Below are positions 1,003-58,922 of a stretch of DNA of 64,000 bases, in pieces. The DNA lies in NCBI RefSeq assembly GCF_055900595.2, contig NZ_CM148325.1. One strand, 5' to 3'. The first letter of the stretch is position 1; each line of letters starts with the position of its first letter. The position numbers and the translations under genes are program-made. The notes below the pieces were generated by a model. It saw nothing but the letters and a program-made list of their open reading frames with translations. It had not been told where the DNA came from and did no database searches.

Positions 1003-1041
1003 ACACCGTCTTTCTGGTGTGTTGATAGCAAACCTCCCGGT

Positions 1042-1904: not shown

Positions 1905-2402
1905 ATGAACGGACTCACGGCAACGGGTATAACCGTCGGTATTTGTGCAGGGCTTTGGCAGTTAGTGTCTTCACATGTCGGGCTCTCTCAGGGATGGGAA
2001 TTATTAGGAACCATTGGCTTCGTCGCCTTTTGCAGTTTTTATGCCGCAGGCGGCGGTAAATCGGGGTTTATCAGAAGCCTGGCGGTTAATTATTCCGGGA
2101 TGGTGTGGGCGTTTTTCGCCGCGCTGGCTTCCGGTTGGCTGGCCTCGGTGAGTGGGCTTTCCGTGTTCTGGGCAAGCGTGATGACTACCGTGCCTTTCTC
2201 AGCTGTAGTGGTCTGGCAAGGGCGTTTCTGGTTACTGTCATTCATTCCCGGAGGCTTTCTCGGCATGACGCTGTTTTTTGCCAGCGGGATGAACTGGACG
2301 GTGACATTACTGGGTTTTCTGGCGGGTAACTGCGTGGGAATAATTTCAGAATATGGCGGACAAAAATTAAGCGAAGCGACGACTAAACGCGACGGGTATT
2401 AA
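1905..2402 (+). CDS. yahC: Inner-membrane protein YahC
   Basis: 165-aa ORF, strongly hydrophobic with several predicted TM helices; SD AGGGGAA upstream; position matches yahC. Confidence 0.75.
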   Translation: MNGLTATGITVGICAGLWQLVSSHVGLSQGWELLGTIGFVAFCSFYAAGGGKSGFIRSLAVNYSGMVWAFFAALASGWLASVSGLSVFWASVMTTVPFSAVVVWQGRFWLLSFIPGGFLGMTLFFASGMNWTVTLLGFLAGNCVGIISEYGGQKLSEATTKRDGY

Positions 2403-2493
2403 AAGTTATTCAAAAATGATTATCTATCTTTAACCGATACCTCTACAGTCATAGCTGGAGAAATTCATAGTAGATAATGGCGGGAATGGTTTA

Positions 2494-5431: not shown

Positions 5432-7465
5432 TCACGCGTCCGGGAACATCACGCTATGGCCCGGCGCTTCACGATGGAGATGGATAAAGTTAAGGTGCCG
5501 CTCGTACTGGTCGAGAATATCGGTGATCACCTGCTCTTTGCTGTAGTCCATCAGGTCGTTACCCTGGCTGCCTTCTAACAGGAAGGTTTCCAGCCGGTAG
5601 TAGGTCGATTTACCGCTACGTGCGCGGTAGGTAAAGCCCGGCACCGAATATTGCTGCGGCCAAATCTGATAGACAAAGTTTTGCTCTTCGCCCATATGCA
5701 CCAGCAAATCCAGATGCCCCAGATGTTCGCCCTCTTCCGGCGGCAGGCTTTTTAGCTCGACGTACGCACCGCGCAACCGCAGTTCCTGCGCCACTTCTTC
5801 CATTGCCGGATAACAGACGGTTTCCATCATCTGTTTGGTGTAACGCGTGCCCGGATAATTCATCAGGCGCGAGAGACGTTTTTTCCAGCTCAGGCGATCC
5901 TGAAGCCCCAGCGGTCGCGGTGCGGTATCACGGTTGGCACTTTCACGGCGGTAATCTTCTACCTTCAGAGATTTATACAATCCCGCCATCACGAAGAAAA
6001 TCACAAAGCTGAACGGCAGCCCCATGATTACCGTGGTGTTTTGCAGCGCGGATATCCCGTTGGTCATTAACATACCGAGCGTCAGCAGACCAATGGCAAC
6101 CGACCAGAAGACACGCAGCCAGCCCGGCGCGTCGCTGTTGATATCTTTAAGCTGCGAGGTGAAATTCCCCAGCACCAGCGCGCCGGAGTCCGCCGAGGTC
6201 ACATAAAACAGCAGGCCAGTAATGGTGGCCACGGAGGCGCTAAAGGTAAATGCCGGATACTGCGCCAGCAGGCTGTAGAAGCCGCGCTCCGGATGGACCA
6301 TCGCTTCCTCGGCAAATGCCGCGCCGCCGTGGATGATTTCATACAGCGCGCTATTGCCGAATACCGAGAGCCATAACAGCGTGAAGGTAAACGGAATAAT
6401 CAACGTCCCCAGTACGAACTGGCGAATGGTGCGCCCACGCGAGATACGCGCCAGGAACAGGCCAACAAACGGCGACCAGGCTACCCACCATGCCCAGAAA
6501 AAGAGCGTCCAGTTATTCATCCACTCAACCGGGCGGTCAAAGGCGAAACTGTTGAGCGTCATGCCCATAAAGCGATTCACATAGTCGCCGACGTTCAGCA
6601 CCAGCGCATTGAGCAGGAACGAGGTGTCGCCCATAAACAGCACGAACAGAATCAGCCCCAGCGCCAGTGCGACGTTGAGTTCAGACAATACGCGAATGCC
6701 TTTGTCGACACCAGATGTCACCGAGATAGTCGCGATGATTACCGACAGCGCGATCAGCACCGCTTTCGCCGCCATTGAATCCGGGATATCAAACAGTACG
6801 CTCAGGCCATAGTTAAGCTGCACCACGCCAATGCCGAGCGTGGTGGCAATCCCGAAGATGGTGCCGATCACCGCTGCAATATCCACCGAGTGACCAATCG
6901 GCCCGTTAATCCGTTTACCGAAAATCGGATACAGCGCCGAGCGGATGGTGAGCGGCAAATTATAACGATAGCTGAAGTATCCGAGCGCCATGCCCATCAG
7001 CGCATACATCGACCAGCCCGTTAAGCCGTAGTGAAACAGCGTCCAGACCATCGCCTGACGCGCGGCCTCAATCGTCTGACCCGCGCCTTCCGGCGGCTGC
7101 ATATACTGCGTTACCGGTTCGGCTACGGAGAAGAACATCAGGTCGATACCGATCCCGGCGGCAAACAGCATCGCCGCCCAGCTCAGCAGGCTGAACTCAG
7201 GCTTAGACTGCTCGGGCCCGAGTTTCACCGAACCAAAGCGCGAACAGGCAATGCAGACCACAAAGACAATATAGAGCGTTGCCGCTAACAGATAGTACCA
7301 ACCAAAAGTTTTAGAAACCCAGTCCAGCGTGCGGCCAATCCACAGAGCCGAGAAGTCGCGAAACAGGATCGTTGTCAGGGAAAACAACAAAATCAGTCCG
7401 GCGGAAGTATAAAACACCACCGGATTGATTTTGTCCTTTTCCCTGCTGTGCGAAAGGTCTGTCAT
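5432..7465 (-). CDS. betT: High-affinity choline transporter BetT (BCCT family)
   Basis: 677 aa; polytopic membrane protein with a BCCT-like tryptophan-rich core and hydrophilic C-terminal tail; divergent from betI. Confidence 0.9.
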   Translation of the reverse strand: MTDLSHSREKDKINPVVFYTSAGLILLFSLTTILFRDFSALWIGRTLDWVSKTFGWYYLLAATLYIVFVVCIACSRFGSVKLGPEQSKPEFSLLSWAAMLFAAGIGIDLMFFSVAEPVTQYMQPPEGAGQTIEAARQAMVWTLFHYGLTGWSMYALMGMALGYFSYRYNLPLTIRSALYPIFGKRINGPIGHSVDIAAVIGTIFGIATTLGIGVVQLNYGLSVLFDIPDSMAAKAVLIALSVIIATISVTSGVDKGIRVLSELNVALALGLILFVLFMGDTSFLLNALVLNVGDYVNRFMGMTLNSFAFDRPVEWMNNWTLFFWAWWVAWSPFVGLFLARISRGRTIRQFVLGTLIIPFTFTLLWLSVFGNSALYEIIHGGAAFAEEAMVHPERGFYSLLAQYPAFTFSASVATITGLLFYVTSADSGALVLGNFTSQLKDINSDAPGWLRVFWSVAIGLLTLGMLMTNGISALQNTTVIMGLPFSFVIFFVMAGLYKSLKVEDYRRESANRDTAPRPLGLQDRLSWKKRLSRLMNYPGTRYTKQMMETVCYPAMEEVAQELRLRGAYVELKSLPPEEGEHLGHLDLLVHMGEEQNFVYQIWPQQYSVPGFTYRARSGKSTYYRLETFLLEGSQGNDLMDYSKEQVITDILDQYERHLNFIHLHREAPGHSVMFPDA

Positions 7466-29887: not shown

Positions 29888-30131
29888 TAATCTTACAGGG
29901 AGATTCCTTATCTCCCTGACATTTATCCTTTATTGACTACACAACAATAATGAAATTACTCAAAAAGAAATTTCATTAAAGAAACAAAAAAGCAGTAACT
30001 CAATCATTAAGATTATTAGAAACCCTTTGAAGGGATTATAAATAAAGCCAGAAATCTTGGTTCCAAAGCTGGCAACAACTAACCAGTTAAAACATACGCA
30101 TCAAAATCAGATAAACATTTGAGGTATTGTT

Positions 30132-31274
30132 ATGACAAATAAACACCCATCATTGTTTTCTCCTTTTATGCTGACAGAAAAAATAAAGCTACGTAATCGT
30201 ATCGTTATGGCTCCTATGACAACCTGGTCAGCTAATCCTGATGGAACCATCTCTGAGCAAGAACTCGAATTTTATAAACGTCGCTCACAAAATGTTGGTT
30301 TAGTAATAACAGGATGCACCTATGTCACGCCAAGCGGCATTGGGTTTACTCATGAATTTGCCGCGTATGACGACCGTTTCATTAACAGCCTTGAAAAGTT
30401 AGCTGCTGCAGCCAAAAGTGGCGGTGCTCCGGCTATTTTGCAGATTTTCCACGCCGGTAATAAAGCCATCCCGGAGCTTGTGCCAAATTACGATGTTATT
30501 AGTGCCAGCGCATCAAGCGTAAAATCTGGTGACTTTATGAAGAGAGTGGTACAAAGCAGGGAAATGACTGAAAACGAAATTCAGGAAACCATTAGAGCAT
30601 TCGGAGATGTCACAAAAAGGGCGATTAAAGCAGGTTTTGATGGCGTTGAACTTCATGGTGCGCACGGATTCCTTCTGCAGAATTTCTTCTCCCCTCTATT
30701 TAACCAGCGTAATGACCGATGGGGAGGAGATCTTGAAGGACGTATGCGCTTCCCGCTGGCCGTATTACAGGAAGTAAAAAATGTAGTCTATGAATATGCG
30801 ACAAAGCCCTTTGCCATCGGTTACAGAATATCTCCTGAAGAATCTGTAACAGGGGGTCTGCGGATAGAGGATACTTATAAACTCCTTGATCGGCTCATTT
30901 CATCCGGTATTTCGTATATACATACCTCGCTGGTCAGTATTAACGATAGCTACCCTGTTGAGTCGCCAAATGGCCCCCGAACTATTGAATTGATTTTAGA
31001 TCATATTGCAGGCAGAGTGCCGGTAATCGCCGCAGGTAAAATACGCACACCGTCTCAGGCTCAAGAAGCAATTTCCGCTGGCCTGCCACTTGTTGCAATC
31101 GGTAAAGGGCTGGTAATAAATCCAGAATGGGTGACTTTAGCTGAATCAGGTAGAAGTCATGAAATTCAAACAGCCCTTAATCCACAACGCGTTCCTGAAT
31201 TAACCATTCCGGATAAACTATGGGATCAAATTCAGGCATCGAAAGGAACTGGCTGGTTTCCGTTAATGGATTAA
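30132..31274 (+). CDS. NADH:flavin oxidoreductase (Old Yellow Enzyme family)
   Basis: 380 aa; OYE motifs (MAPMTTW, LHGAHGFLLQNFFSP...NxRxDxWGG). Confidence 0.8.
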   Translation: MTNKHPSLFSPFMLTEKIKLRNRIVMAPMTTWSANPDGTISEQELEFYKRRSQNVGLVITGCTYVTPSGIGFTHEFAAYDDRFINSLEKLAAAAKSGGAPAILQIFHAGNKAIPELVPNYDVISASASSVKSGDFMKRVVQSREMTENEIQETIRAFGDVTKRAIKAGFDGVELHGAHGFLLQNFFSPLFNQRNDRWGGDLEGRMRFPLAVLQEVKNVVYEYATKPFAIGYRISPEESVTGGLRIEDTYKLLDRLISSGISYIHTSLVSINDSYPVESPNGPRTIELILDHIAGRVPVIAAGKIRTPSQAQEAISAGLPLVAIGKGLVINPEWVTLAESGRSHEIQTALNPQRVPELTIPDKLWDQIQASKGTGWFPLMD

Positions 31275-31746
31275 ATATCTATTACTCTCCCGAGAGTAAA
31301 ACTATCAAACCAATGAGTAACCGATACAGCCTCGCAAATTCTTTCAGATAATTAACCCGTCACTGCGGCACGTTCTCTCATAAGGCGTGCCTGCTGTGTA
31401 ATCCAGTATGTATCCGGCATACTTGACGGTTTAATAGAACTCAATTCCTTTCCCAGGTTACCAACAACGATATCTTGTATAACACCCCAGGAGATACGAC
31501 ATTATGATGAGATGAGGTATGCTCCTCAGCGCCAATCAACGCCAGGGCTGGGCCAGTTTTGAGATCAGACTCATTCCCGGACTGACTTCAGGCGACATAT
31601 ATCAATGACATTGGGGCAATAAAAGATAGCCGATGTAATACATCTATTCAAATTTGTGATACATGTCAAAAAATTGGTTGACCAAACTCGTTATTTATAT
31701 AAGGGCACTTACGAAGTGCACTCTTTTTTAAAGCGAGGAAGTACCA

Positions 31747-31848
31747 ATGAAAGAGAATAAAGTACAGCAAATCAGTCATAAACTGATTAATATCGTTGTT
31801 TTGGTAGCAATTGTAGAATACGCCTATTTATTCCTCCATTTCTATTAA
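31747..31848 (+). CDS. ykgR: Small membrane protein (33 aa), YkgR-like
   Basis: SD GAGGAAG 7 nt before ATG; MKENKVQQISHKLINIVVLVAIVEYAYLFLHFY with one hydrophobic helix. Not in the ORF track because under 60 aa. Confidence 0.5.
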   Translation: MKENKVQQISHKLINIVVLVAIVEYAYLFLHFY

Positions 31849-32183
31849 TAACGGCAATAAACTGTTCATTTCAGCAATATTCAAAAGATGCATCCTCTCC
31901 CTTTTTTTTAAGTAATTATTATATCCGTGGGAGAGGAATACACGCTGTCAGGTAATCAATCAAACTGCGATAAATCATCGGCCAGTAAAGTGGAGATAGC
32001 CTCCATTCTCGAAAAATTCATACTCTCAGCGAAACCATCATCAATCACTCATCCAGGCGTTTATGGGAGCGTCGCCAATGGCTGCTAACAATGCCAGACT
32101 TCCCCGTTGCCGAAATTCCACATACCACAAATGGTCACAGGGATTGGGTGTTGAAATGATCCGGATGAGCATGTATCTTTATA

Positions 32184-32201
32184 GTTATGTTATAACATAA
32201 C
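32184..32201. promoter_or_regulatory. Zur box (zinc-uptake-regulator operator) upstream of ykgM
   Basis: Perfect 18-bp palindrome GTTATGTTATAACATAAC 12 bp before the ykgM start; ykgM-ykgO are the zinc-independent L31/L36 paralogs known to be Zur-repressed. Confidence 0.7.
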
Positions 32202-32212
32202 AGGTAAAAATG

Positions 32213-32476
32213 ATGAAACCCAATATCCATCCTGAGTATCGTACTGTGGTGTTCCATGACACCAGTGTTGATGAGTACTTTAAAATCGGCTCGACTATCA
32301 AAACAGACCGTGAGATTGAGCTGGATGGCGTAACGTATCCGTACGTGACAATTGATGTCTCTTCGAAATCGCACCCGTTCTATACAGGGAAGCTGAGAAC
32401 AGTGGCATCAGAAGGAAATGTTGCACGGTTCACCCAACGTTTTGGTCGTTTTGTTAGCACGAAAAAGGGGGCGTGA
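32213..32476 (+). CDS. ykgM: 50S ribosomal protein L31 type B (zinc-independent paralog)
   Basis: [59 protein letters not shown]... lacks the Zn-binding cysteines. Confidence 0.9.
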
Positions 32477-32616
32477 TGAAAGTCCTTAACTCTCTGCGTA
32501 CCGCAAAAGAACGCCATCCAGACTGTCAGATTGTGAAGCGAAAAGGACGGCTGTATGTGATTTGTAAATCTAATCCACGTTTTAAGGCCGTTCAGGGGCG
32601 TAAGAAAAAGCGTTGA
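32476..32616 (+). CDS. ykgO: 50S ribosomal protein L36 paralog (46 aa)
   Basis: ATG overlaps the ykgM stop (ATGA); [46 protein letters not shown]. Not in the ORF track because under 60 aa. Confidence 0.85.
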
Positions 32617-32644
32617 TTCATAATTCGCCGGATTAACGATATTT

Positions 32645-32697
32645 GTCTGATTAATAATCAGACCGGATTAATGTTGGTGTGTTTATAACACCAACAT
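32645..32697 (+). terminator. Tandem hairpins after ykgO (possible terminator)
   Basis: GTCTGATT-AAT-AATCAGAC (8-bp stem) then ATGTTGGTGT-GTTTATA-ACACCAACAT (10-bp stem), followed by TTAATTTCC. Confidence 0.4.
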
Positions 32698-33134
32698 TAA
32701 TTTCCTGGGGATATATTCTTCCTGTTCATTTAAAGCCAACTGCCTGACGTTTCTCTCCGAATATTCCATTATATTAATGTTGATTTGTTGACCAGCTTCG
32801 CCCCTGTATGCTGGTATCAACTCTCTTTTAGACTGAACAAGCCACTCCGCCCCCTCCCTTTGCGGAGCAGCCTGCATTTACACTCAAACTGTTAAGATGA
32901 TAAATGTGGTAAATCTGTTGGTACTAACATAAAAACGTTTACGCCACAGGAACAGCCTGATCCACCAGTAACCCCATCGCCGACGTTCGAGTGCCAGTTA
33001 GAGTAACGCGCACAGATGACTGCACGCAGTGCCCTGTCAAAGAGGCCATCGTTCCTGTGACAGCTGGCAGCCTTCGTTTAACTTCACTTAATTTGGCTCT
33101 TGGGGGGCTTACCGAACAGGGTAATGACTCCAAC

Positions 33135-33638
33135 TTATTGATAGTGTTTTATGTTCAGATAATGCCCGATGACTTTGTCATGCAGCTCCACCGATTTTGA
33201 GAACGACAGCGACTTCCGTCCCAGCCGTGCCAGGTGCTGCCTCAGATTCAGGTTATGCCGCTCAATTCGCTGCGTATATCGCTTGCTGATTACGTGCAGC
33301 TTTCCCTTCAGGCGGGATTCATACAGCGGCCAGCCATCCGTCATCCATATCACCACGTCAAAGGGTGACAGCAGGCTCATAAGACGCCCCAGCGTCGCCA
33401 TAGTGCGTTCACCGAATACGTGCGCAACAACCGTCTTCCGGAGCCTGTCATACGCGTAAAACAGCCAGCGCTGGCGCGATTTAGCCCCGACATAGCCCCA
33501 CTGTTCGTCCATTTCCGCGCAGACGATGACGTCACTGCCCGGCTGTATGCGCGAGGTTACCGACTGCGGCCTGAGTTTTTTAAGTGACGTAAAATCGTGT
33601 TGAGGCCAACGCCCATAATGCGGGCAGTTGCCCGGCAT
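33135..33638 (-). CDS. insB: IS1 transposase InsB (expressed as InsAB' by frameshift)
   Basis: 167 aa, [64 protein letters not shown]... Confidence 0.95.
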
Positions 33639-33832
33639 CCAACGCCATTCATGGCCATATCAATGATTTTCTGGTGCGTACCGGGTTGAGAAGCGGTGTA
33701 AGTGAACTGCAGTTGCCATGTTTTACGGCAGTGAGAGCAGAGATAGCGCTGATGTCCGGCGGTGCTTTTGCCGTTACGCACCACCCCGTCAGTAGCTGAA
33801 CAGGAGGGACAGCTGATAGAAACAGAAGCCAC
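33557..33832 (-). CDS. insA: IS1 protein InsA
   Basis: 91 aa, [43 protein letters not shown]... (zinc finger + HTH). Confidence 0.95.
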
Positions 33833-33949
33833 TGGAGCACCTCAAAAACACCATCATACACTAAATCAGTAAGTTGGCAGCATCACCAAAACCTGCAAAA
33901 ACTCTTAGATCTTTTACAGAGCGAAGATGGATTCAGTAGCAATAAGAAG

Positions 33950-36949
33950 TTGATTGGCAAATTTCGTTTGTTACCGAAAAAATTAACCACAAAGAAAAAA
34001 CATGAATCCCAAAATGGACACGTCCACTTTTCTAATCCTAAACGAGCAGCCGACCATTTATTTAATAATTTTGATCTGATACCAGAGTTTCGTATTATTG
34101 GTGACTTCCCGGTTGATAGTCACATTATCTCTGCACTATGGATTAACATGGTCGGGCATAAATTTGATGCCAGCTTAGATAACTGTTGCTATGGCGCGCG
34201 GCTAAAGCGTATTCGTAATGATGAATTATTTAGCAATGAGCAGGATAATCCATTCCATATCAGTGCAGTGGGTTCTTTTAGCCCCTACTTCCAGCCCTAC
34301 CAAAAATGGCGTGGTGATGGCTTAAAAGCTATACGTGACGAGTTGGAAAAAGATCGTGACATTATCGCCGCCTCACTGGATTTAAAAAGTTACTATCATT
34401 TTATTGATCCACTGGCTATAACCTCTGATGATCTCTATAACACACTAAACATAAAACTGACTGAGGATGAAAAAGCGTTTACTGCACAGTTAGCAGTATT
34501 CTTAAAGCACTGGTCTGACGGCGCAGCGGCATTTGGAAAGAAAATAGCGTACAAAACACCTGTTATTAATGGTGGTCTGGTCATTGGATTAACAGCCAGT
34601 CGGATCATTTCAAATATATTGCTACACCATTGGGATAAATTAGTCATTGAAAAACTATCACCAATTCACTACGGTCGTTATGTCGATGATATGTTCCTTG
34701 TAATACGCGATACAGGGAAAATTACTAATAATCACGAATTTATGTTATTGCTGCAAGATAGGCTTGGCAATGATTGCGTTTATTTGAAAAACGAGCAAAA
34801 ACAAATATGGCAAATACAGCAGGGCGAGCATTTCCAGGGTAAGACCACCATCCAGTTACAATCCGATAAGCAAAAACTTTTCGTGCTTCAAGGGAGGGCT
34901 GGAATAGACCTGCTCGACAGTATCGAAAAGGAGATCTACGAGCTTTCTAGTGAACACCGCTTGATGCCTTCACCGGATCAACTGGAACACTCAACCGCAG
35001 CTAAAGTCCTTTCCGCTGCCGGTAGTGTAGGTGAAAATGCCGATACTCTGCGCCGTGCAGATGGATTAACCATTCGTCGTTTGGGCTGGTCACTGCAATT
35101 ACGCTACGTTGAAACACTGGCACGAGATCTGCCTCCAAGTGAATGGAAAGAACAGCGGGAAGAGTTTTATCAGTTTGCCTACAACCATATTCTTAGGGCT
35201 GATAATCTATTTGCACATTTTAGTTATCTGCCAAGGCTGCTTGGCTTTGCTATCAGTATGAATGAATGGCAGCACGCGGAAACAATTGTACTTAAAGCTT
35301 ACGAATCCATCAACCTGTTGGCATCGGTGATTACTTCAGGTAAGGAAGTGAATATAAATGGTTGCAAAACTCGAGCAGTAAATGATCTTTGGCGCTGTAT
35401 AAAAGGCACATTAAGCTGGCTATTTGTTGATGCAGCGACACGATATTACAGTCCTGACAGATTATTTCTTGATAAACGTTCAAAGAAAGAAGAGTGCCTT
35501 GCGGATACATTTTTTAATCATATTTCACAAAGTCTGACGAATCTAAAGGATTTACTGGATCTTCGCTTTGATTCAGCAGATTTTTATTTAAAAGCGCCAT
35601 TGGTAGCTCGAGCTGATTTAGCAAAGGAACCTTATAAACAGATCGTAAAGAGTCAGTCGGCAGAAAAACTTGTTAATCAGCGTGATAGTAAAAAAGAAGT
35701 TAAAATACTGAAATTAATGAGCGACTCATCGCTTATTGATATTGACGTTATTAAGCTATTTTTGAAATCAACCAAGAATACCCGACTGGAAAAAGTGGCT
35801 AAAGGAAATCGTAAGAACGAAAGTTACCTACCTTACATTTTCCCTACACGTCCTTTAACACCCGCTGAAATATCAGAACTGGCCCCCGAATGTGTTGGAT
35901 TACCCTCCACATCCGACAAAAAACCAGATGAGAGACCGTCCACCATTTGGGCAAAATATACTCAAGCATTACGCGGAGTATGGATCAAACCGACGTTGCT
36001 AGCATCGGAGCAGGACTCAGATGAAGCGACAAAAAAAGCTCGGCCTAAGAAATTCATTCATATTGGCACAGACAGGAAACATAAAGTTGTCGTTGCGCTA
36101 ACCAGCATTAAAACAGAGGAGGACGACTGGGCTAAAATGGCCTGCAATAAATCTAACTTGTCCCGTTCAAGGTACCAGCGGATTTCTGAACTGGTTAATG
36201 CAACATTGAAACTATCTCCTAAACCTGATTATGTTTTATTCCCTGAGCTTTCAATCCCGTTACGCTGGGTTAACAGTATTGCTGATCGTTTGAGTTCGGC
36301 GGGTATCAGTCTAATTGCGGGAACAGAATACCGCCACTTAGACGATAATCAACTGAAGAGTGAGGCCGTACTTGTCCTTTCAGATAACAGACTCGGCTAT
36401 CCAGCGAGTGTCAAAATATGGCAACCCAAGCTGGAACCCGCCGTAGGTGAAGATGAGGCATTATTTTCAACTTATGGTAAGTCTTGGGACTCGACACTTA
36501 ATGTTAAACAACGTAAGCCGGTATATATTCATCATGGCGTCAATTTTGGCGTTATGATTTGCTCTGAACTCCAGAATAGTAAAGCGAGGATCCGTTTTCA
36601 GGGCGCACTCGATGCATTAATGGTATTGAGCTGGAATAAAGATCTAGATACGTTTGCATCGTTGATTGAATCAGCAGCGCTGGATATTCATGCCTATACT
36701 ATTTTAGTGAATAACCGAAAATACGGCGATAGTCGCGTACGTTCCCCGGCAAAAGAACCCTTTATGCGTGATATTGCTCGTGTGAAGGGCGGTGATAATG
36801 ACTTTGTGGTCGCTGCAACGCTGGATATCGACTCGTTAAGGGCATTTCAGAGCAGGGCAAAACGCTGGCCTAAAGGCGGCGATAAATTCAAACCGTTACC
36901 TGAAGGATTCCAGTTGGCAAAGAACCGCAAAAAGCTACCGCCAAAATAA
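33950..36949 (+). CDS. Reverse transcriptase with C-terminal nitrilase (C-N hydrolase) domain; defence-associated RT, DRT type 1 / UG1-like; possibly 5'-truncated by IS1
   Basis: RT motifs in order: A (ASLDLKSYYHFID), B (GGLVIGLTASRIISNILL), C (YGRYVDDMFLV). C-terminus has a nitrilase-type Glu/Cys pattern (YVLFPELSIP ... GVMICSELQ). ORF begins at TTG 63 bp after IS1 and the frame is open into IS1. Confidence 0.8.
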   Translation: MIGKFRLLPKKLTTKKKHESQNGHVHFSNPKRAADHLFNNFDLIPEFRIIGDFPVDSHIISALWINMVGHKFDASLDNCCYGARLKRIRNDELFSNEQDNPFHISAVGSFSPYFQPYQKWRGDGLKAIRDELEKDRDIIAASLDLKSYYHFIDPLAITSDDLYNTLNIKLTEDEKAFTAQLAVFLKHWSDGAAAFGKKIAYKTPVINGGLVIGLTASRIISNILLHHWDKLVIEKLSPIHYGRYVDDMFLVIRDTGKITNNHEFMLLLQDRLGNDCVYLKNEQKQIWQIQQGEHFQGKTTIQLQSDKQKLFVLQGRAGIDLLDSIEKEIYELSSEHRLMPSPDQLEHSTAAKVLSAAGSVGENADTLRRADGLTIRRLGWSLQLRYVETLARDLPPSEWKEQREEFYQFAYNHILRADNLFAHFSYLPRLLGFAISMNEWQHAETIVLKAYESINLLASVITSGKEVNINGCKTRAVNDLWRCIKGTLSWLFVDAATRYYSPDRLFLDKRSKKEECLADTFFNHISQSLTNLKDLLDLRFDSADFYLKAPLVARADLAKEPYKQIVKSQSAEKLVNQRDSKKEVKILKLMSDSSLIDIDVIKLFLKSTKNTRLEKVAKGNRKNESYLPYIFPTRPLTPAEISELAPECVGLPSTSDKKPDERPSTIWAKYTQALRGVWIKPTLLASEQDSDEATKKARPKKFIHIGTDRKHKVVVALTSIKTEEDDWAKMACNKSNLSRSRYQRISELVNATLKLSPKPDYVLFPELSIPLRWVNSIADRLSSAGISLIAGTEYRHLDDNQLKSEAVLVLSDNRLGYPASVKIWQPKLEPAVGEDEALFSTYGKSWDSTLNVKQRKPVYIHHGVNFGVMICSELQNSKARIRFQGALDALMVLSWNKDLDTFASLIESAALDIHAYTILVNNRKYGDSRVRSPAKEPFMRDIARVKGGDNDFVVAATLDIDSLRAFQSRAKRWPKGGDKFKPLPEGFQLAKNRKKLPPK

Positions 36950-37111
36950 GAAACTGATTTTCGCTATTAATAATCAGGGTATTTTTGCGTGAGATGTCGG
37001 TAAACATGATGTAGCTCTTGCCACTCATGACCAATCGCAGTATCTTTCTCCCGCGTCTGCAAAATCAGGCGTCGGGATTAGCCTCCTGAAGAAATCTTAT
37101 CGGCGACACAT

Positions 37112-37132
37112 GACGCGCCAGCGTCTTTTTTT
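37112..37132 (+). terminator. Putative intrinsic terminator downstream of the RT-nitrilase gene
   Basis: GACGC-GCCA-GCGTC hairpin followed by TTTTTTT. Confidence 0.45.
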
Positions 37133-37295
37133 GTGTTGTTCGCACGGTTACACCTCAATGGTGGGCCGGGCGGGGGCGTCGCAAGACGCGCCAGTGTCCG
37201 ATAAGGCTGGTAAGGCTAACCCTGCCCGGTTCCACCACCCGCGAGATTAGCCTCTCCGGTGGTGGCTTGAACACCCACTTATCGGAGGTTGCCCT

Positions 37296-37766
37296 ATGGC
37301 TACAATCCTCACCACTGACAGCGATTTACTCGATCTATTGACCGTCCCCTTCAATGCCACCACGGATTTCACTGTCCTTGCTGACTACTGCGCCCGCTTT
37401 GCCGAAACCCTGATTGAAACCGACGATCCCGCGCTACGACTGGCGCTCTGCGGGCGGCTTCACGCGGCTCTTGCGCTATTGCAACCCACACTACACGACC
37501 CCATCCCACCGCATCTTACCGAAAGCCTGACCGTGGATACCCTTCCCGCCACACCAGAGCACTTTATTTCCGAACCTGATTCCTTGTGCGAATACTGCCT
37601 CGCACTACTCCAGCTTCTGCTGGAACGTCCGGCGGAACCAAAAATGGAGCAAACCCTGACCGGGCTGCTGTGTGAGCTGGTCTGGTATTTCACGGAAGGA
37701 CTCAAAGCCCCGCGCTGGATGCGTACCGCCGACGGCGTAAAATTTATCAGCGAGGTGGCCGCATGA
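37296..37766 (+). CDS. Hypothetical protein (156 aa), Leu/Ala-rich, acidic
   Basis: ORF preceded by GGAGG SD; no recognisable motif; stop overlaps the start of the ner-like remnant. Confidence 0.45.
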   Translation: MATILTTDSDLLDLLTVPFNATTDFTVLADYCARFAETLIETDDPALRLALCGRLHAALALLQPTLHDPIPPHLTESLTVDTLPATPEHFISEPDSLCEYCLALLQLLLERPAEPKMEQTLTGLLCELVWYFTEGLKAPRWMRTADGVKFISEVAA

Positions 37767-38103
37767 TGCAACAGGACTGGCATTCCGCCGACATTATTGC
37801 GGTGCTGAAAAAGCGGGGAACGCCTCTGGCGGCACAGAGAAAAACTCATTGCGGAAGCGCTGTAAATATCGCCAGAAATCATCTGGTCCTCAAGGTACTT
37901 TGATAGCAAAGGCAAGCTGGCTGGTTCAGTCCGGAGTCTCTCTTCTTGCACTTAAAGAGATGGGAGGATGGGAAACTCTCAAAAAGGTTCAGAGATACGC
38001 TCACCTTTCAGCCGGGCATCTCACCGAGCACGCAAGCAAAATCGGCACGATCATAAGTCGCAATGGCACAAATACGGCACAGGAGGAAGCGTGGTGTATT
38101 TAA
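37763..38103 (+). pseudogene. Frameshifted Ner/Nlp-like HTH gene fused to the 3' end of a tyrosine-integrase gene (deletion scar)
   Basis: Frame A reads MMQQDWHSADIIAVLKKRGTPLAAQ (Ner/Nlp-like N-terminus); frame B reads ...GPQGTLIAKA (Ner-like C-part) joined in frame to SWLVQSGVSLLALKEMGGWETLKKVQRYAHLSAGHLTEHA, a typical integrase C-terminus with the catalytic Tyr. Confidence 0.6.
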
Positions 38104-38121
38104 ATATGGGGTAACTACTTG

Positions 38122-38144
38122 ATTTAAATGGTGCGATAATAGGA
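38122..38144. repeat. Partial copy of the thrW 3' end: distal att repeat of the thrW-integrated element
   Basis: TTTAAATGGTGCGATAATAGGA matches TTTGAATGGTGCCGATAATAGGA at 58841-58863 (tRNA 3' end plus 6 bp) with 1 mismatch and 1 indel. Confidence 0.75.
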
Positions 38145-38205
38145 ACAATACACATAGGCGATAAGCTTTGTTTTTGTTGCCTTTTTTATTGTTCATTTTT
38201 TATAG

Positions 38206-38227
38206 ATACCCCCAAAAGTACCCCCAT
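38206..38227. repeat. Putative integrase arm-type site (ATACCCCCAAAAGTACCCCCAT), left end of element
   Basis: 22-mer differs by 1 nt from the copy at 58713-58734 near the int start; each holds two TACCCCCA half-sites. Confidence 0.45.
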
Positions 38228-38345
38228 ATCTTTTTCCGCCCCTGAAATTTGGTTGTTATTCATACAGCATATCAGGCGGTAACGCTCTCCCTTTAACCCA
38301 CTTATTGTATGATAGTGCTATCCCACAATAAGGAATCAGCCAGCC

Positions 38346-38705
38346 ATGAGAATGACCAGCCGTAAAAAAGAGATACTCAGTTATTTTGAGCCGGATAACC
38401 TAGAATGGGTGACAGGTGAGATTGGTGCGCCGCCGTTCGATGTGTCGGGCGTGGCCTACCTGCTTCATGGCATGGTGTCGTTCGATAAGCGCCACCAGCT
38501 CGAATCAACCCGGCGCACACTGGAAAGCATGGTTGCTGGTGGACTGCTTGAGCGGGTGACAGTGTATGAATCGCGTCAGGTACGGCGCGGCGGTGAGACT
38601 AACGCAACGGTCGTGCGCTACGGTTTACCCGGTCACTGCGCTGTTATGCGCGATACTGGCGGCGCTGATAACGCAATATCAGGCGAATACATGCGGGTCA
38701 GTTAA
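38346..38705 (+). CDS. Hypothetical protein (119 aa)
   Basis: ORF only; no recognisable motif. Confidence 0.35.
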   Translation: MRMTSRKKEILSYFEPDNLEWVTGEIGAPPFDVSGVAYLLHGMVSFDKRHQLESTRRTLESMVAGGLLERVTVYESRQVRRGGETNATVVRYGLPGHCAVMRDTGGADNAISGEYMRVS

Positions 38706-39240
38706 GAGCCTGCAATCTGTCGTTAATGTTGTTCAGGTCGTAAACCCGGCGTTCAATATCCAGCATCAGGAAATCGTGGATCTCGGCCTGTTCAGGATTA
38801 TCAGACTCTCTGGCCTGTAAGAGCAATTCATTGTAACCATGCAAACCACCCGAATTTTCCGCCGGGGTAGTGCCCTTCCCGCGCAAACAGCTAACAGGCT
38901 GGATACTGGTATCATGTGTTTGCTTCTCCAGCACAACAAGGCAATCCCACCAGTCGCCAAAGTCATACGTGTAAACCAGCTTGTCACCCTCATTCTGGAG
39001 CGCCGCCCATAGTGGCGTGATTGCCGCGTTACCCATGCTTTCATCCTCACCCCATACGCGATACTCGCTACCTGGATCACCTTTACGCCCTTTCTCGAAC
39101 ATATACAGGTGTTCGTCATTCCAGCCAAAAGCTAACTGGATCACGGCATGAAGTTTACTAAAGGGGATTTGCTCTGGAACCAGCACACGCCGCCATATTG
39201 GTGGTTTGCTGTCTCGGATGGTTATCTTTATCTGGTACAT
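38698..39240 (-). CDS. pRiA4b ORF-3-like family protein
   Basis: N-terminus MYQIKITIRDSKPPIWRRVLVPEQIPFSKLHAVIQLAFGWNDEHLYMF is the recalled hallmark of this family. Confidence 0.6.
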   Translation of the reverse strand: MYQIKITIRDSKPPIWRRVLVPEQIPFSKLHAVIQLAFGWNDEHLYMFEKGRKGDPGSEYRVWGEDESMGNAAITPLWAALQNEGDKLVYTYDFGDWWDCLVVLEKQTHDTSIQPVSCLRGKGTTPAENSGGLHGYNELLLQARESDNPEQAEIHDFLMLDIERRVYDLNNINDRLQALN

Positions 39241-39283
39241 GCGTCGTGAACCAATAGTGTACGTTTAGGTGGGTATTTTTCTG

Positions 39284-39718
39284 CTACTGACCAGGATAGA
39301 GCTGATGTGCCGGGTCAAGCCAGACAATATGGAATACATTACCGATGAAAAATCCATGTATGCGACCATATTCATTGCGCGATATGGCAAATTGATAAGG
39401 TGTATAACTCTGAAACTGTTCATTCAAATGCTGAAATCCCTTAGGTTCAGATGTAGTTTGCCAATCAATCGGATGTGACTTCAACGAACCACCGCGATCG
39501 GTGGTGAACTCTCGTTCAGTCATAGTGGAAAGGTCTTTGAGGCGGTCTAACACCTTGCAAAAATAAACAGGATTCTGAGCGCTGAAAGTAAATTTCTCAT
39601 GCGCCGCATCGATATACCGAAAAGAAAAGTTGATGGTCGTTATGCCTGAACCTGTTCCCCCAGGCACTATTTTTGTTTGCGAGGGTGCAATCTTCGACGC
39701 CCTGATTCTTTTCGCCAT
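39284..39718 (-). CDS. Hypothetical protein (144 aa) coupled to the Panacea-domain gene; candidate toxin/effector partner
   Basis: ATG 2 nt after the upstream stop with no SD of its own (translational coupling); no recognisable motif. Confidence 0.5.
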   Translation of the reverse strand: MAKRIRASKIAPSQTKIVPGGTGSGITTINFSFRYIDAAHEKFTFSAQNPVYFCKVLDRLKDLSTMTEREFTTDRGGSLKSHPIDWQTTSEPKGFQHLNEQFQSYTPYQFAISRNEYGRIHGFFIGNVFHIVWLDPAHQLYPGQ

Positions 39719-39720
39719 AT

Positions 39721-40176
39721 TTAGGAAGCCATCGAACGATAAAACTCAGCCGTTACACTTTTATCAATAACATTCTTGCACGGCGCATCTGATGGAACCC
39801 CTTCACGGGCCTCCAGCCACGGCTTTTCTTGGTGCGTCATCTGCTCCAGCTCATAAGCTGTATAACCGCCAAATACCTCATAGATTTCCTTTAGATGCTT
39901 TGACACATTCGCAGGTAACTCAGGGCAGGCAATCTCTTCGTCTATTGAGCGCCATTTGTAATCTGCAAATCTGGTATACAAATCTCTGGCTACAGGGCCA
40001 TGTACCCATGCTTCAAACTTGTCAGCAACCAGTTCTTCGCCATCATTCAGCGCCATGAACCAAGCATCAGCATAGAACACCATTTTTTGCAGTTTCAGCG
40101 GCGTCATAACATCCCCATGCTCTTGAGCAAAGCAAAGCAGGTAATCCGCTACGCTGTTAAGGGTTGTAACTGCCAT
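39721..40176 (-). CDS. Panacea-domain (DUF4065, SocA/GepA-like) protein; putative antitoxin
   Basis: AGGAG SD before ATG at 40176 (MAVTTLNSVADYLL...); LKLQKMVFYADAWFMALNDGEELV...FEAWVHGPV is characteristic of the domain. Longer ORF 39721-40407 is probably upstream read-through. Confidence 0.6.
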   Translation of the reverse strand: MAVTTLNSVADYLLCFAQEHGDVMTPLKLQKMVFYADAWFMALNDGEELVADKFEAWVHGPVARDLYTRFADYKWRSIDEEIACPELPANVSKHLKEIYEVFGGYTAYELEQMTHQEKPWLEAREGVPSDAPCKNVIDKSVTAEFYRSMAS

Positions 40177-40497
40177 TATCCAATCTCCTGCCGTATGTTT
40201 TCGTCTATAACTGTCCACTACCGTTAATAATCGCATATAACCACGGGTATTGCCCATCGTAAAATGCCATTTAAAGATTCTGCGTGATGGCTCACCATCC
40301 ACCGCGCAAGATACCCGGTGCGTTTGGCTGATAATCCGCAATTTGGTTGAAACCGTCCTGGAAACCTCAAGTTTGGAAACCAGCGACTTGCATCGTAGCT
40401 TTGCCATTCGGCGGTCATAGTTACTGCTATATCCCTTTATTGGCGAGACCTGCGAGAGGTTTTGTTGTTCGAATATATAAAGGTGAATAAAGGTAAT

Positions 40498-40683
40498 CTA
40501 CCTGCGCGGCGCAGGCTTCTTCCACTGGTAGGCGGGTGATCGCATCATTTCGCGAAATTTGTCACGCCGGGCTATATTGGCATTAACTGAGCGTTCTATC
40601 TCCCGTTGATCTGCCGGGGTTAGCTGGTGGCCTTCGTGCTCCAGTTTGGCGGTGGTCAATAAAGCTATTTCGCGTGGTGTCAT
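40498..40683 (-). CDS. Hypothetical small protein (61 aa)
   Basis: ORF only; charged, helical. Confidence 0.25.
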   Translation of the reverse strand: MTPREIALLTTAKLEHEGHQLTPADQREIERSVNANIARRDKFREMMRSPAYQWKKPAPRR

Positions 40684-40910
40684 ACGTCATACCCTCTGGA
40701 AGGATGAAACACGCCCGGATTAAATTTCATTTTTCGCGGGTATAAAAAAACGATGGGGCGGGCAGTCCCGGATAGTCAGGGCTGTAGAGATTTGACTACC
40801 CCCTCCCCACTGGATTCAGGTTACTGCTATTCCGTTAAGCGCTGCTTACGGGGATAGCTGCGTTGTGATTTTGACCATTCAGGTCGCCGCTATTTCCTCA
40901 CCGATTGGGT

Positions 40911-40942
40911 GCTACGCGCGCGCGTACTTGTCCCGAAATACC
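40911..40942. repeat. Copy 1 of a GC-palindrome motif (GCTACGCGCGCGCGTACTTGTCCCGAAAT)
   Basis: One of three same-orientation copies (with 42303 and 42589); core TACGCGCGCGTA is a perfect palindrome. Confidence 0.5.
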
Positions 40943-40980
40943 AGAAACCGCCAGCCAGAGGATGATTTCCCTCTGGTGGT

Positions 40981-41262
40981 CTACCTTTGCCTCTTGCCGC
41001 CATTTAACCGGAAGGCGTTACCGTTCGGTTGCGCTATCCCCATGCGGTGTTGCGTTTCGGTAACAGCTTTATGCAGGTCGCCAAATTCCTCAACCTTCAC
41101 GGGCGGGCGCTTCACGTTCTCCAGACACGTTTCACGGCGGCGCTTTATCCATTCCCGATCATCGTCCTCGCTGCATAACAGCATGACTTCCATCCATCGT
41201 GCGGCAGCTCTCCGGTATAGCCCTTTTGACACCAGCTCTTCAGCTTTCCTGTCCCTTATCAT
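40981..41262 (-). CDS. PerC-family transcriptional activator-like protein
   Basis: 93 aa; MIRDRKAEELVSKGLYRRAAARWMEVMLL matches the conserved PerC/Pch N-terminal signature (recalled). Confidence 0.55.
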   Translation of the reverse strand: MIRDRKAEELVSKGLYRRAAARWMEVMLLCSEDDDREWIKRRRETCLENVKRPPVKVEEFGDLHKAVTETQHRMGIAQPNGNAFRLNGGKRQR

Positions 41263-41295
41263 TTCTGCCTCTCAGATTATATAGATAAGCAAAAA

Positions 41296-41420
41296 GGTGT
41301 TGGTTCAGTTGGTTCAGTTGGTTCAATTTGTAAAGATCGTTGTTTTTATTATGTTTTTTCTAAAATATTGAACCAACATCAACTCATTTTGAACCAACAC
41401 AGCCCAGCTCTGAACCAACA
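41296..41420. repeat. Iteron array I: 3 direct + 3 inverted GTTGGTTCA repeats around an AT-rich spacer (origin-like)
   Basis: GGTGTTGGTTCAGTTGGTTCAGTTGGTTCAATTTGTAAAG ... TTGAACCAAC, TTGAACCAACAC, TGAACCAACA; the first 40 nt are the exact reverse complement of 49541-49580. Confidence 0.7.
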
Positions 41421-41521
41421 ACACAGCGATAGCTTTGTGATTGGCCCGTTATTTTCTGGCTGATATTTGAGCGTATAACAGTGTTATACAGTGATATACT
41501 GTATGGATATTACTCACTGAT

Positions 41522-41977
41522 ATGGTCTTTGCAATGAGCAAATCTAATCTGGTCGCGTTCCGCATCCCATCTGAATTGCAGGATGAGTTTAATCGGTCTG
41601 TTCTCGCTTCTGGAGGGGATAAAACCTCCTGGCTTGTTGATGCGATTCGCATGAAGCTGGGACAGCCGGAAAAGTCTATTGATTCACGAATGTTTGGGCT
41701 GGTGGAGCGCATGGAAAAAGCTGCTGCGTCGCTTATTGCCGGAAAGCCGAACATCCCACCAAAGCCATATAACGAAACGGCAGTTATAAAGATCATTGCC
41801 GATACCATCCGACAGGGATTTGATAATGGGCGTGTGATAGCTGAACGGATCAATGAAGCAGGCTATCAAACAAAAGCTGGTAAAGCGTGGGATAAAGATA
41901 TTTACAGCGCGTGGAAGCGTCAGGGAAGCAATGCTGAAAAGTTAAAAGCGGTGATTGATTGTAAGGTCAGCGTATAA
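41522..41977 (+). CDS. Hypothetical protein (151 aa)
   Basis: ORF just downstream of iteron array I; no recognisable motif. Confidence 0.4.
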   Translation: MVFAMSKSNLVAFRIPSELQDEFNRSVLASGGDKTSWLVDAIRMKLGQPEKSIDSRMFGLVERMEKAAASLIAGKPNIPPKPYNETAVIKIIADTIRQGFDNGRVIAERINEAGYQTKAGKAWDKDIYSAWKRQGSNAEKLKAVIDCKVSV

Positions 41978-42056
41978 ACATGAGTGCCCATTGGAAAGCT
42001 GCTTGGGCCAATACCTTTATACACCAGCAGGTGGTGACGATAGGTGAGGATCAGGA

Positions 42057-58846: not shown

Positions 58847-58922
58847 TGGTGCCGATAATAGGAGTCGAACCTACGACCTTCGCATTACGAATGCGCTGCT
58901 CTACCAACTGAGCTATATCGGC
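58847..58922 (-). tRNA. thrW: tRNA-Thr (anticodon CGU), thrW; integration site
   Basis: 76-nt minus-strand sequence GCCGATATAGCTCAGTTGGTAGAGCAGCGCATTCGTAATGCG...GGCACCA folds as a cloverleaf with CGT anticodon and CCA end. Confidence 0.9.

Follow-up and report, generated by a model that had tools for sequence, protein, structure and literature searches.

A UG5-large reverse transcriptase-nitrilase antiphage gene, probably inactivated recently, in the remnant of a thrW-hotspot island on an Escherichia coli chromosome

Reverse transcriptases (RTs) fused to nitrilases constitute an already known family, and several of its members bear directly on the locus described here. DRT1 (UG1) of Klebsiella pneumoniae, a class 3 UG/Abi RT for which a cryo-EM structure is available (9YFD), is a single-gene system that leads to abortive infection. 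This protein primes DNA synthesis on S402, and the resulting DNA adduct drives assembly into a dormant filament; when its RT is inactivated, DRT1 stays monomeric and is neither toxic nor defensive (PMC13275509). DRT1, DRT5S and DRT5L (the latter two purified by Neville et al., 2026) all make covalent DNA without a template, the activity of the two DRT5 proteins likewise being protein-primed, and the priming serine of DRT1 was stated not to be conserved in other class 3 RTs (PMC13275509). For DRT11, from Sinorhizobium meliloti RMO17, the RT-nitrilase gene suffices to give an Abi-like phenotype with no noncoding RNA (ncRNA), and its YVDD motif and nitrilase cysteine are each essential (bioRxiv 10.64898/2025.12.16.694600). 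Finally, a P4-like satellite of E. coli encodes a UG5 RT-nitrilase along with a single-transmembrane (1TM) protein, a system that protects its host from phage (Rousset et al., 2022; PMC9122126). Given the recent biochemical and structural work on DRT1 and DRT5L and the report on DRT11, an earlier remark that the mechanism of such systems is poorly understood is now outdated.

The locus considered here lies within a 64,000-nucleotide stretch of an E. coli chromosome (contig NZ_CM148325.1; hereafter the window), for which the original prediction was a single-gene, DRT type 1 (UG1)-like antiphage system. The open reading frame (ORF) appears in the list of window ORFs exactly as it had been described, extending from 33950 to 36949 on the plus strand and encoding 999 amino acids from a TTG start, and all the motif strings quoted for it (SLDLKSYYHFID, GGLVIGLTASRIISNILL, YGRYVDDMFLV, FPELS and ICSE) are found within its translation. 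This ORF is a genuine RT-nitrilase antiphage gene, but one that is missing its promoter, its start codon and its conserved N-terminus.

Profile searches place the gene in a different family from the one first proposed. The best match is PADLOC profile PDLC03780 (RT_UG5-nitrilase; E = 7.7e-288, 955.8 bits), which aligns ORF residues 2-998 with profile positions 79-901 of 907 and leaves positions 1-78 unmatched. The next other PADLOC family trails by more than 200 orders of magnitude, and the RTasNitrilase profile gives E = 1.7e-43. The Drt1a profile matches residues 81-339 (E = 2.6e-26) and 870-975 (E = 9.6e-10) and nothing else. Because of the disparity between the RT_UG5-nitrilase and Drt1a values, we assign the gene, as judged from its sequence, to UG5-large rather than to DRT1, which places it among the class 3 UG/Abi RTs in the family of DRT11 and DRT5L. 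The identification as DRT type 1 is also contradicted by protein size, with UG1 proteins comprising 1200-1300 aa (PMC9226505) versus 1069 aa for the intact protein. A second PADLOC UG5-nitrilase model, PDLC02995, matches the nitrilase part only (176 bits), suggesting that the gene belongs to a different subclade from the UG5 system of the P4-like satellite.

The broader classification fared better. PADLOC profiles, comparison of a family profile with PDB sequences, and Foldseek all support a defense-type (UG/Abi) RT fused to a nitrilase-superfamily domain, and these same approaches together with NCBIfam agree that the gene does not encode an RT of a retron, group II intron or diversity-generating retroelement (DGR). 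No NCBIfam model exceeds its threshold on the ORF, with matches to retron, Drt2, Drt3a and Drt4 models all falling below (for retron_St85_RT, 33.1 bits where 235 are required), and none matches the neighboring small ORFs. The proposed search for RT and carbon-nitrogen hydrolase profiles gave a divided answer, wherein Pfam-A detects neither RVT_1 nor CN_hydrolase in the ORF and returns only a spurious match to NMT, whereas the PADLOC profiles match. We set aside the nominal refutation by Pfam-A because the specific PADLOC and family profiles, along with the structure model and fold search, do match.

Among the described systems, DRT11, compared by its published description, belongs to the same UG5-large family. 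Its YVDD-type RT is likewise followed by a helical connector and then by a C-terminal nitrilase whose center is K-C-E. It resides without a transmembrane (TM) partner or ncRNA in a variable defense region, where an AbiEii-type toxin gene is found close by, which is also true of the intact E. coli loci. In contrast, DRT11 is 1005 aa in length and the E. coli type represents another, very conserved gammaproteobacterial clade, of which the window copy is 5'-truncated by IS1. The biochemically tested DRT5L is collinear and 27-29% identical, with an 'SS..RLP' motif at the equivalent position, but DRT5L is distant in sequence, is about 947 aa long according to noisy machine-read supplement text, and possesses the N-terminus that the window copy lacks. 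DRT1 has aligning catalytic YVDD and cysteine residues but belongs to a separate UG group, at 1229 aa and with a longer middle region. The UG5 + 1TM system likewise has an E. coli host, a UG5 RT with a C-terminal nitrilase, and an integrase-associated mobile island with a P4/P1-type immunity RNA nearby. It differs in having a downstream TM gene, reportedly needed, with no counterpart at the window locus.

The predicted architecture of the protein (residue numbers refer to the intact form) is well defined. An AlphaFold2 model has a pLDDT of 86.3 and a pTM of 0.91, and the top Foldseek matches are nitrilase-superfamily amidases (E from 2e-8 to about 1e-8; target TM-score 0.63-0.68), with further matches to DRT9, AbiA and DGR RTs; the PDB fold library used runs to April 2026, and 9YFD is not among its matches. 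When the family profile is instead compared with PDB sequences, the best match is DRT1 (9YFD; E = 1.6e-26) with both domains aligned, followed by other DRT and retron RTs. In these alignments the RT residues correspond to the LDLK and YVDD (D324/D325) motifs of DRT1, and also to those of Drt3a and retron RTs, whereas C941 is aligned with the DRT1 catalytic residue C1116. Furthermore, D214, Y314, D316 and D317 of the RT and E836, K897 and C941 of the nitrilase are invariant among 51 homologues, down to 27% identity, and the RT catalytic codons in the window are undamaged. Model and alignments together confirm the predicted fold and the catalytic residues D214, Y314-V-D-D317, E836, K897 and C941. 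Thus the window copy has the full-length best profile, the motif A aspartate with YVDD, and the C-terminal nitrilase with its Glu-Lys-Cys set that characterize RT-nitrilase UG5 proteins, but not a complete protein with N-terminal helices.

Table 1. Positions of features in the window and of selected codons (residue numbering of the intact protein).
Feature	Position	Strand	Remarks
IS1, 768 bp	33120..33887	-	insA 33557-33832 (-), insB 33135-33638 (-); terminal inverted repeats
5'-truncated UG5-large RT-nitrilase gene remnant	33888..36949	+	nt 149-3210 of the 3210-nt CDS
RT palm catalytic core	34379..34690	+	motif A Asp214 (34379-34381) to motif C Y314-V-D-D317 (34679-34690)
Ser404, S-S-E-x-R-L/M-x-P motif	34949..34951	+	present in 51/51 sequences
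Nitrilase-superfamily (C-N hydrolase) domain	36053..36946	+	Foldseek, profile, invariant residues
Predicted catalytic Glu836, Lys897, Cys941 (within C-S-E943)	36245-36247, 36428-36430, 36560-36562	+	codons in nitrilase domain
c4-a1b1 targets	37040-37092	+	Rfam
isrK	37053-37131	+	Rfam
C4 antisense RNA	37154-37242	+	Rfam
156-aa hypothetical gene	37296-37766	+	old thrW island remnant
Tyrosine-integrase C-terminal fragment	37849-38103	+	old thrW island remnant
Degenerate copy of thrW 3' end (att)	~38129-38144		3' of integrase fragment
thrW, tRNA-Thr(CGT)	58847..58922	-	ARAGORN; attachment site

What is absent becomes evident on comparison with the intact gene, which comprises 3210 nt and encodes 1069 aa (loci L001 and L002). 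Because the match to the intact coding sequence (CDS) begins at nt 149, at window position 33888, the TTG at 33950 is the internal codon Leu71, and the reading frame upstream of it stays open up to the IS1 end. The frame of the remnant extends from Asn51 at 33890 to the stop codon at 36947-36949. The window contains neither the ATG nor codons 1-49 plus one base nor any of the upstream region, and a search throughout it for the missing 5' end, in inverted or relocated form, did not find it. When the family profile is compared with PDB sequences, residues 10-61 align with the N-terminal part of the G2L4 RT, and residues 15-60 are modeled as three helices (15-32, 38-46 and 48-60) with pLDDT values of 87-97. 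The deleted segment also holds the invariant residues A21, K26 and E45 and the near-invariant residues Y22, R23, K24, A25, D28 and L48.

Intact copies of the 1069-aa gene are present in about 260 (259-260) of 5426 complete E. coli genomes, and every one of these carriers has an uninterrupted 5' end with no IS1 junction. In related strains, the gene is transcribed divergently from an AbiEi/AbiEii pair. The intact protein of E200086-like strains is WP_103253298.1 or WP_001521910.1, and its gene has an upstream region of 316 bp. Across several gammaproteobacterial orders, identity within the clade is 69-82%, and thus by sequence the E. coli-type UG5-large clade appears to be unusually conserved. 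Over all of its 3062 nt, the remnant matches the intact gene of strain E200086 without a single difference (100% identity); 9 nt and 3 aa separate it from the gene of strain 7/2. The identity to an intact allele over all 3062 remaining nucleotides argues that the truncation is recent. The remnant carries no further lesions, an observation that fits recency but would equally fit continued use.

The agent of the truncation is recognizable from the adjoining DNA. Immediately upstream lies an insertion sequence whose length of 768 bp, terminal inverted repeats (GGTAATGACTCCAACTTATTGAT / GGTGATGCTGCCAACTTACTGAT) and insA/insB genes identify it as IS1, in agreement with the RefSeq label at this position ('IS1A family transposase'). 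Its IRL end adjoins the truncated gene at the second base of codon 50, and on its left side homology to E. coli K-12 stops at 33119. The sequences flanking IS1 do not match and there is no 9-bp target duplication around it, as expected if IS1 gave rise to an adjacent deletion and did not simply insert. In the closest relative, E200086, the two breakpoints are separated by 20,360 bp that contain ecpRABCDE, ykgJ, yagU, paoABCD, three more genes, AbiEii and AbiEi. We therefore attribute the truncation to an IS1-associated deletion of approximately 20.4 kb that brought IS1 up against the second base of codon 50. Lost with it were the promoter, the ATG and the conserved N-terminal three-helix region (the RT N-terminal extension), together with AbiEi/AbiEii, the pao genes and the ecp operon. 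The exact IS1/RT junction occurs in none of the 5426 complete E. coli genomes, and scanning one genome per species likewise yielded no exact match.

On the other side of the gene, the arrangement is also as first described, with an integrase scar opposite IS1. The 156-aa gene and the integrase fragment are annotated beside thrW in intact loci as well, which bears out the assignment to the thrW hotspot. A second integrative element of approximately 21 kb, which occurs alone at thrW in other E. coli, now lies between the RT island remnant and thrW. PADLOC found no match among the adjacent genes of this island at 38.3-40.4 kb. Taken together, these observations lead us to conclude, with a probability of roughly 85%, that the locus is a recently inactivated UG5-large RT-nitrilase antiphage gene in a small remnant of a thrW-hotspot island on the E. 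coli chromosome. From its sequence, the window copy is most likely a dead remnant from which no functional protein is made.

The alternative that survives best is that the truncated gene is still active, with read-out from the IS1 end or a hybrid promoter driving a shortened RT-nitrilase that retains some defensive or toxic activity. IS1 insertions can create promoters, including hybrid ones, the downstream coding sequence is undamaged, and initiation at TTG (Leu71) or later is conceivable. There are weak sigma-70-like matches at 33954-33983 and 34071-34098, but both are located inside the ORF, 3' of the TTG, and no sigma-70-like site was found upstream of the TTG on the plus strand. Furthermore, on reading the sequence we saw no good ribosome-binding site ahead of this codon. 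Helices 15-60, which are missing here, belong to the RT fold, where they are invariant and modeled with high confidence, and the inert, monomeric state of RT-inactive DRT1 (PMC13275509) would, by analogy, predict neither toxicity nor protection. We therefore consider residual activity improbable.

Still less probable is that the gene belongs to a two-component UG5 system with a TM partner, or to an RNA-templated system that uses the adjacent C4 and isrK RNAs. The E. coli P4-like-satellite UG5-large + 1TM system reportedly needed its TM gene (PMC9122126, as discussed in PMC9226505), and structured RNAs do lie 90-290 nt downstream of the gene in the window. However, ORFs of 50 aa or longer are lacking between 36950 and 37296 in the window, a TM-protein gene 3' of the RT is absent from both the window and the intact E. 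coli loci, and a search of six genomic contexts, including five loci from other genera, found no TM or other conserved partner. Neighbors are not conserved, including AbiE, hsdRMS-Kiwa or an SMC-like gene depending on the locus or genus. A TM partner is not a defining feature, because DRT11 also lacks one and works alone without an ncRNA (bioRxiv 10.64898/2025.12.16.694600); only 31 of 299 UG5-large genes have a TM neighbor (PMC9226505).

The RNAs lead to the same outcome. Rfam reveals no retron or intron RNA at 30000-42000 and no family common to the homologous loci. C4 (71.1 bits) and isrK (66.5 bits) both exceed their gathering scores, and the intact E. coli locus L001 also has the C4/isrK/a1b1 RNAs, but they are missing from five homologous loci in other genera and were rejected on this basis as an RNA of the RT system. 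These standard P1/P4-type immunity RNAs belong to the island backbone and are separate from the RT system. A dedicated RNA is also rejected because homologous loci offer gaps too short for one (in L008, the intergenic gaps flanking the gene are only 4-55 nt). Context comparison and Rfam thus uphold the earlier view that no dedicated partner gene or structured RNA accompanies the RT, and of the proposed single-gene system this part stands; the gene is not intact, since IS1 has removed its 5' end, promoter and conserved N-terminal helices.

An intact and functional single-gene DRT type 1 (UG1) of 999 aa translated from TTG 33950 would account for the long uninterrupted ORF, the complete set of RT and nitrilase catalytic residues and the status of DRT1 as the closest solved structure, but it is exceedingly unlikely given that the UG5 profile surpasses Drt1a by about 260 orders of magnitude, that the gene encodes 1069 aa in 259-260 genomes whereas nt 1-148 and everything upstream of them are missing from the window, that the TTG is Leu71 in an open frame running back into IS1, and that the invariant N-terminal residues are gone.

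Having settled on an inactivated UG5-large gene, we can still ask how its intact counterparts might function, and here we infer the whole biochemical mechanism from homologues. The invariant Ser404 would be the candidate protein-priming residue; in a pairwise alignment that is weak in this region, it lies within about 4 residues of S402, the DRT1 priming site in the loop that follows the RT thumb, so that equivalence of the two is only suggested. The DNA adduct would lead to oligomerization, which might both assemble the C-terminal nitrilase (E836-K897-C941) and restrain it, and phage replication functions would then release the nitrilase to cause abortive infection. This scheme is borrowed from proteins with about 27-29% identity (DRT5L) or less (DRT1). 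It is a tentative and perhaps doubtful proposition that the intact E. coli-type protein represents a distinct, TM-independent and unusually conserved UG5-large clade that primes DNA synthesis on Ser404. If true, the position of the class 3 priming site would be conserved between this protein and DRT1 (Ser402), in conflict with what has been published, and the IS1 allele would constitute a natural N-terminal deletion that tests the role of the RT N-terminal extension in protein priming and nitrilase licensing.

In annotation, the appropriate label for the locus is RT-nitrilase pseudogene or fragment of the UG5-large type (class 3 UG/Abi, DRT11-like). Listing it among intact DRT1 defense systems would overstate the defense repertoire of this strain. 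The locus is otherwise an ordinary case of rapid turnover at the thrW hotspot, wherein a single IS1 event took out the pao genes, the ecp fimbrial operon and two defense modules, namely AbiE and the RT-nitrilase, and a new 21-kb element meanwhile inserted beside thrW. With the family already known and the window copy probably inactive, forward value resides only in the intact alleles, which offer a very conserved E. coli clade, a candidate priming serine and predicted catalytic residues for experiments.

The original prediction described a gene of 999 codons, and the ORF together with the strings quoted from it (SLDLKSYYHFID, GGLVIGLTASRIISNILL, YGRYVDDMFLV, FPELS and ICSE) was recovered in full. 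A complete IS1 with typical terminal inverted repeats lies directly to the left of this reverse transcriptase (RT) gene, and a 156-aa ORF and a C-terminal integrase fragment lie to its right, in agreement with the mosaic flanks described earlier. The G+C content of the RT ORF (39-45%) is below that of the flanks. With the ORF, the motifs, the IS1, the integrase fragment and the compositional contrast all seen, these sequence features are real.

The proposal that this is an intact single-gene system was not supported, since the ORF is a 5'-truncated remnant whose start and upstream region are gone. A megablast search with nucleotides 33888-36949 recovered the gene, with no less than 99% identity, from 260 of the 5426 complete E. 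coli genomes; its RefSeq label there is "RNA-directed DNA polymerase" or "hypothetical protein". The intact CDS in these genomes is 3210 nt long and encodes 1069 aa. Homology in the window starts only at nt 149 of this CDS, and thus the TTG taken as the start codon is internal Leu71; the frame upstream of it is open all the way into IS1. Missing from the window copy are the entire upstream region, the ATG and codons 1-49 together with one base of codon 50, and this 5' DNA is not found anywhere else within the 64-kb window. Over the 3062 common bases, the remnant matches the gene of strain E200086 at 100% identity, and 9 nt (3 aa) separate it from that of strain 7/2.

A 9-bp target duplication was sought at the IS1 flanks and none was found. 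To the left of IS1, bases 8200-33119 match, at 99.9% identity, the genome lineage that carries the 100%-identical intact RT gene, and homology to K-12 on this side stops precisely at 33119, between ykgL and matA (ecpR). A span of 20,360 bp separates the two breakpoints in E200086 (positions 1312-21672 of the stretch L010); it carries ecpRABCDE, ykgJ, yagU, paoABCD, genes for an MFS transporter, a hydrolase and a LysR regulator, a fragment of ykgR, the AbiEii and AbiEi genes and the RT-gene 5' end. The simplest reading is one IS1-associated adjacent deletion of ~20.4 kb relative to E200086. At the 33119/33888 junction, this deletion took out the entire ecpRABCDE common-pilus operon and the AbiEi/AbiEii system together with the other genes of the interval and the start of the RT gene. 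The 5' end is uninterrupted in every one of the 259-260 E. coli genomes with the RT gene body, and the IS1/RT junction is absent from complete E. coli genomes (n=5426) and from species-representative genomes; the truncated allele is therefore rare. Its perfect identity to the intact allele indicates that truncation was recent. In intact strains, the RT island has at its far border another, incomplete copy of the ykgR region (6615-6748 in the intact locus L002), 88% identical to the genuine region left of ykgM in the window (31780-31913), which hints at how the island or adjoining genes were rearranged.

The assignment to a mosaic thrW hotspot was confirmed, in that a second integrative element separates thrW from the integrase remnant of the old island. 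This element, which in APEC and other E. coli occupies thrW by itself, encodes its own integrase, a TOPRIM/DUF927 primase, and antA/ash-type and P22-type ejection-protein/lytic-transglycosylase genes. The old junction, and with it tandem accretion, is marked by a degenerate thrW 3'-end copy. A small block of cargo genes at this element's far end may be a toxin-antitoxin or defence pair; PADLOC found no matches in it.

Features of the RT gene and the thrW hotspot (window positions)
Feature	Position	Strand	Remarks
IS1	33120-33887		complete, 768 bp; insA, insB on -
RT-nitrilase ORF	33950-36949	+	999 aa, TTG start, from ORF listing
c4-a1b1, isrK and C4 antisense RNAs	37040-37242	+	Rfam, 71 and 66 bits; 90-290 nt downstream of RT gene
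thrW 3'-end copy	~38129-38144		degenerate
Second integrative element	~38130-58850		~21 kb
Cargo block	38346-40407		begins with 119-aa ORF
'pRiA4b ORF-3 family' gene	38698-39240	-	in cargo block
144-aa ORF	39284-39718	-	in cargo block
SocA/Panacea antitoxin-domain gene	39721-40407	-	in cargo block
thrW	58847-58922	-	tRNA-Thr CGT

In intact E. coli loci, the RT gene is divergent from an AbiEi/AbiEii pair and is followed by the island backbone (RNAs, a hypothetical gene, a small HTH gene, the integrase remnant and thrW). The RNA cluster is a P1/P4-type immunity RNA module of this backbone; at the equivalent position in strain 7/2, RefSeq has a CDS for a 57-aa 'ash family protein'. We inspected homologous loci whose RT proteins are 49-76% identical. 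In Yersinia (L004 1-9219), Citrobacter (L006 1-8219) and a metagenome contig encoding a Pleionea (Pleionea litopenaei) protein (L008 1-8204), the gene directly follows hsdR-hsdM-hsdS-kwaA-kwaB on the same strand with tiny gaps, and this conserved combination of type I R-M, Kiwa and RT-nitrilase, a multi-system defence cassette, seems to travel as a unit. In Vibrio (L005) the gene follows an SMC-like gene in a DUF927-primase island, and in another metagenome contig (L007) its surroundings include GmrSD and SocA genes. The E. coli locus and the five others share no TM protein or other gene, and C4 and isrK occur only at the E. coli locus among those compared. The L008 gene has just 55 nt upstream and 4 nt downstream, and so there is no space for a dedicated flanking ncRNA. 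The earlier view that it has no dedicated partner gene or structured RNA was supported. An AbiEii-type nucleotidyltransferase toxin adjoins the gene in E. coli (L001 6848-8537) and also in the S. meliloti DRT11 locus (bioRxiv 10.64898/2025.12.16.694600). Because it is absent beside the gene in the five other loci, this is probably defence-island co-residence and not a functional link.

In the classification of Mestre et al. (PMC9226505), the gene belongs to the UG5-large type of class 3 UG/Abi RTs. Its top PADLOC match is RT_UG5-nitrilase (PDLC03780; E 7.7e-288), near end-to-end with profile positions 1-78 unmatched; RTasNitrilase (C-terminal 280 residues), RT_UG5_small (RT part) and Drt1a (2.6e-26) match more weakly. 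The earlier DRT type 1 (UG1) label is not supported: the gene is not UG1/DRT1, going by these scores and by length, as UG1 members have 1200-1300 aa whereas the intact E. coli protein has 1069. NCBIfam retron and Drt matches were all sub-threshold, and a Pfam-A search of the ORF returned no match for an RT or nitrilase domain. A search of 1.84 billion cluster representatives gave 858 clusters with E <= 1e-30, and in nearly every full-length member the alignment starts at query residue ~5-17. In a 51-sequence alignment reaching down to 27% identity, the invariant residues include A21, K26 and E45 (N-terminal), D214, Y314, D316 and D317 (RT), S404, and E836, K897 and C941 (nitrilase). The profile from this alignment, compared with PDB sequences, best matches DRT1 (9YFD; E 1.6e-26) over both domains, pairing YGRYVDD with YCRYVDD and C941 with C1116; Drt3a, Drt2, retron, DGR and group II-type RTs follow, and query positions 10-61 match the G2L4 RT N-terminus. 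A confident AlphaFold2 model of the intact protein (pLDDT 86.3, pTM 0.91) has three N-terminal helices (residues 15-60, pLDDT 87-97), an RT core, a helical middle region and a C-terminal α/β domain. Foldseek matches this model best to nitrilase-superfamily amidases (E ~1e-8, target TM 0.63-0.68) and next to DRT9, AbiA and DGR RTs. Members of this clade (P0002-P0120; Enterobacterales, Vibrio, Marinobacter, Idiomarina, Alteromonas and others) share 69-82% identity at a near-constant 1064-1080 aa, which is unusually conserved for a defence gene.

In DRT1, semirandom ssDNA attached covalently to the protein drives its assembly into tetramers and filaments, and this assembly forms the nitrilase while also holding it dormant; defence is abortive, needs RT and nitrilase, and requires the T4 helicase Dda for activation, and RT-dead protein is monomeric, non-toxic and non-protective (Neville et al., PMC13275509). 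Purified UG5 proteins DRT5S and DRT5L likewise make covalent DNA without a template (PMC13275509). For DRT11, a UG5-large system, one gene suffices for defence, which requires YVDD and the nitrilase Cys, depends on multiplicity of infection in an Abi-like manner and uses no ncRNA (Sánchez-Nieto et al., bioRxiv 10.64898/2025.12.16.694600). A UG5 RT-nitrilase with a 1TM partner from an E. coli P4-like satellite was validated by Rousset et al. (PMC9122126). Since the intact E. coli protein is collinear with DRT5L, N-terminus included, at 27-29% identity in both domains, we infer that the intact allele would act by the same mechanism of covalent DNA, assembly, nitrilase control and abortive defence. 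Ser404, at the end of a long helix after the RT core (model helix 385-407, pLDDT ~77), lies in an invariant S-S-E-x-R-L/M-x-P motif. Because it is conserved in 51/51 sequences and aligns within ~4 residues of Ser402, the priming site of DRT1, it is a candidate priming residue.

The window copy is without its native promoter, and whatever protein it made would be missing residues 1-70 or more. No portion of the N-terminal region is more conserved than the lost segment, which the model places in the fold with high confidence and which is the counterpart of the N-terminal extension in related RTs. RT-dead DRT1 offers an analogy, by which a protein incapable of polymerisation would neither assemble nor license its nitrilase. 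Given the missing promoter and ATG, the lost conserved segment and this analogy, we judge the window copy to be a recently formed pseudogene, with a probability of roughly 0.8-0.85. The main rival to this reading is residual expression from an IS1-generated promoter; there are no sigma-70-like sites on the + strand upstream of the TTG, and both + strand matches fall inside the ORF.

The UG5-large family is already known, being catalogued in PADLOC and having other members (DRT11 and DRT5L) that are experimentally validated. The modest value that remains resides in a highly conserved E. coli clade and in its candidate priming serine.
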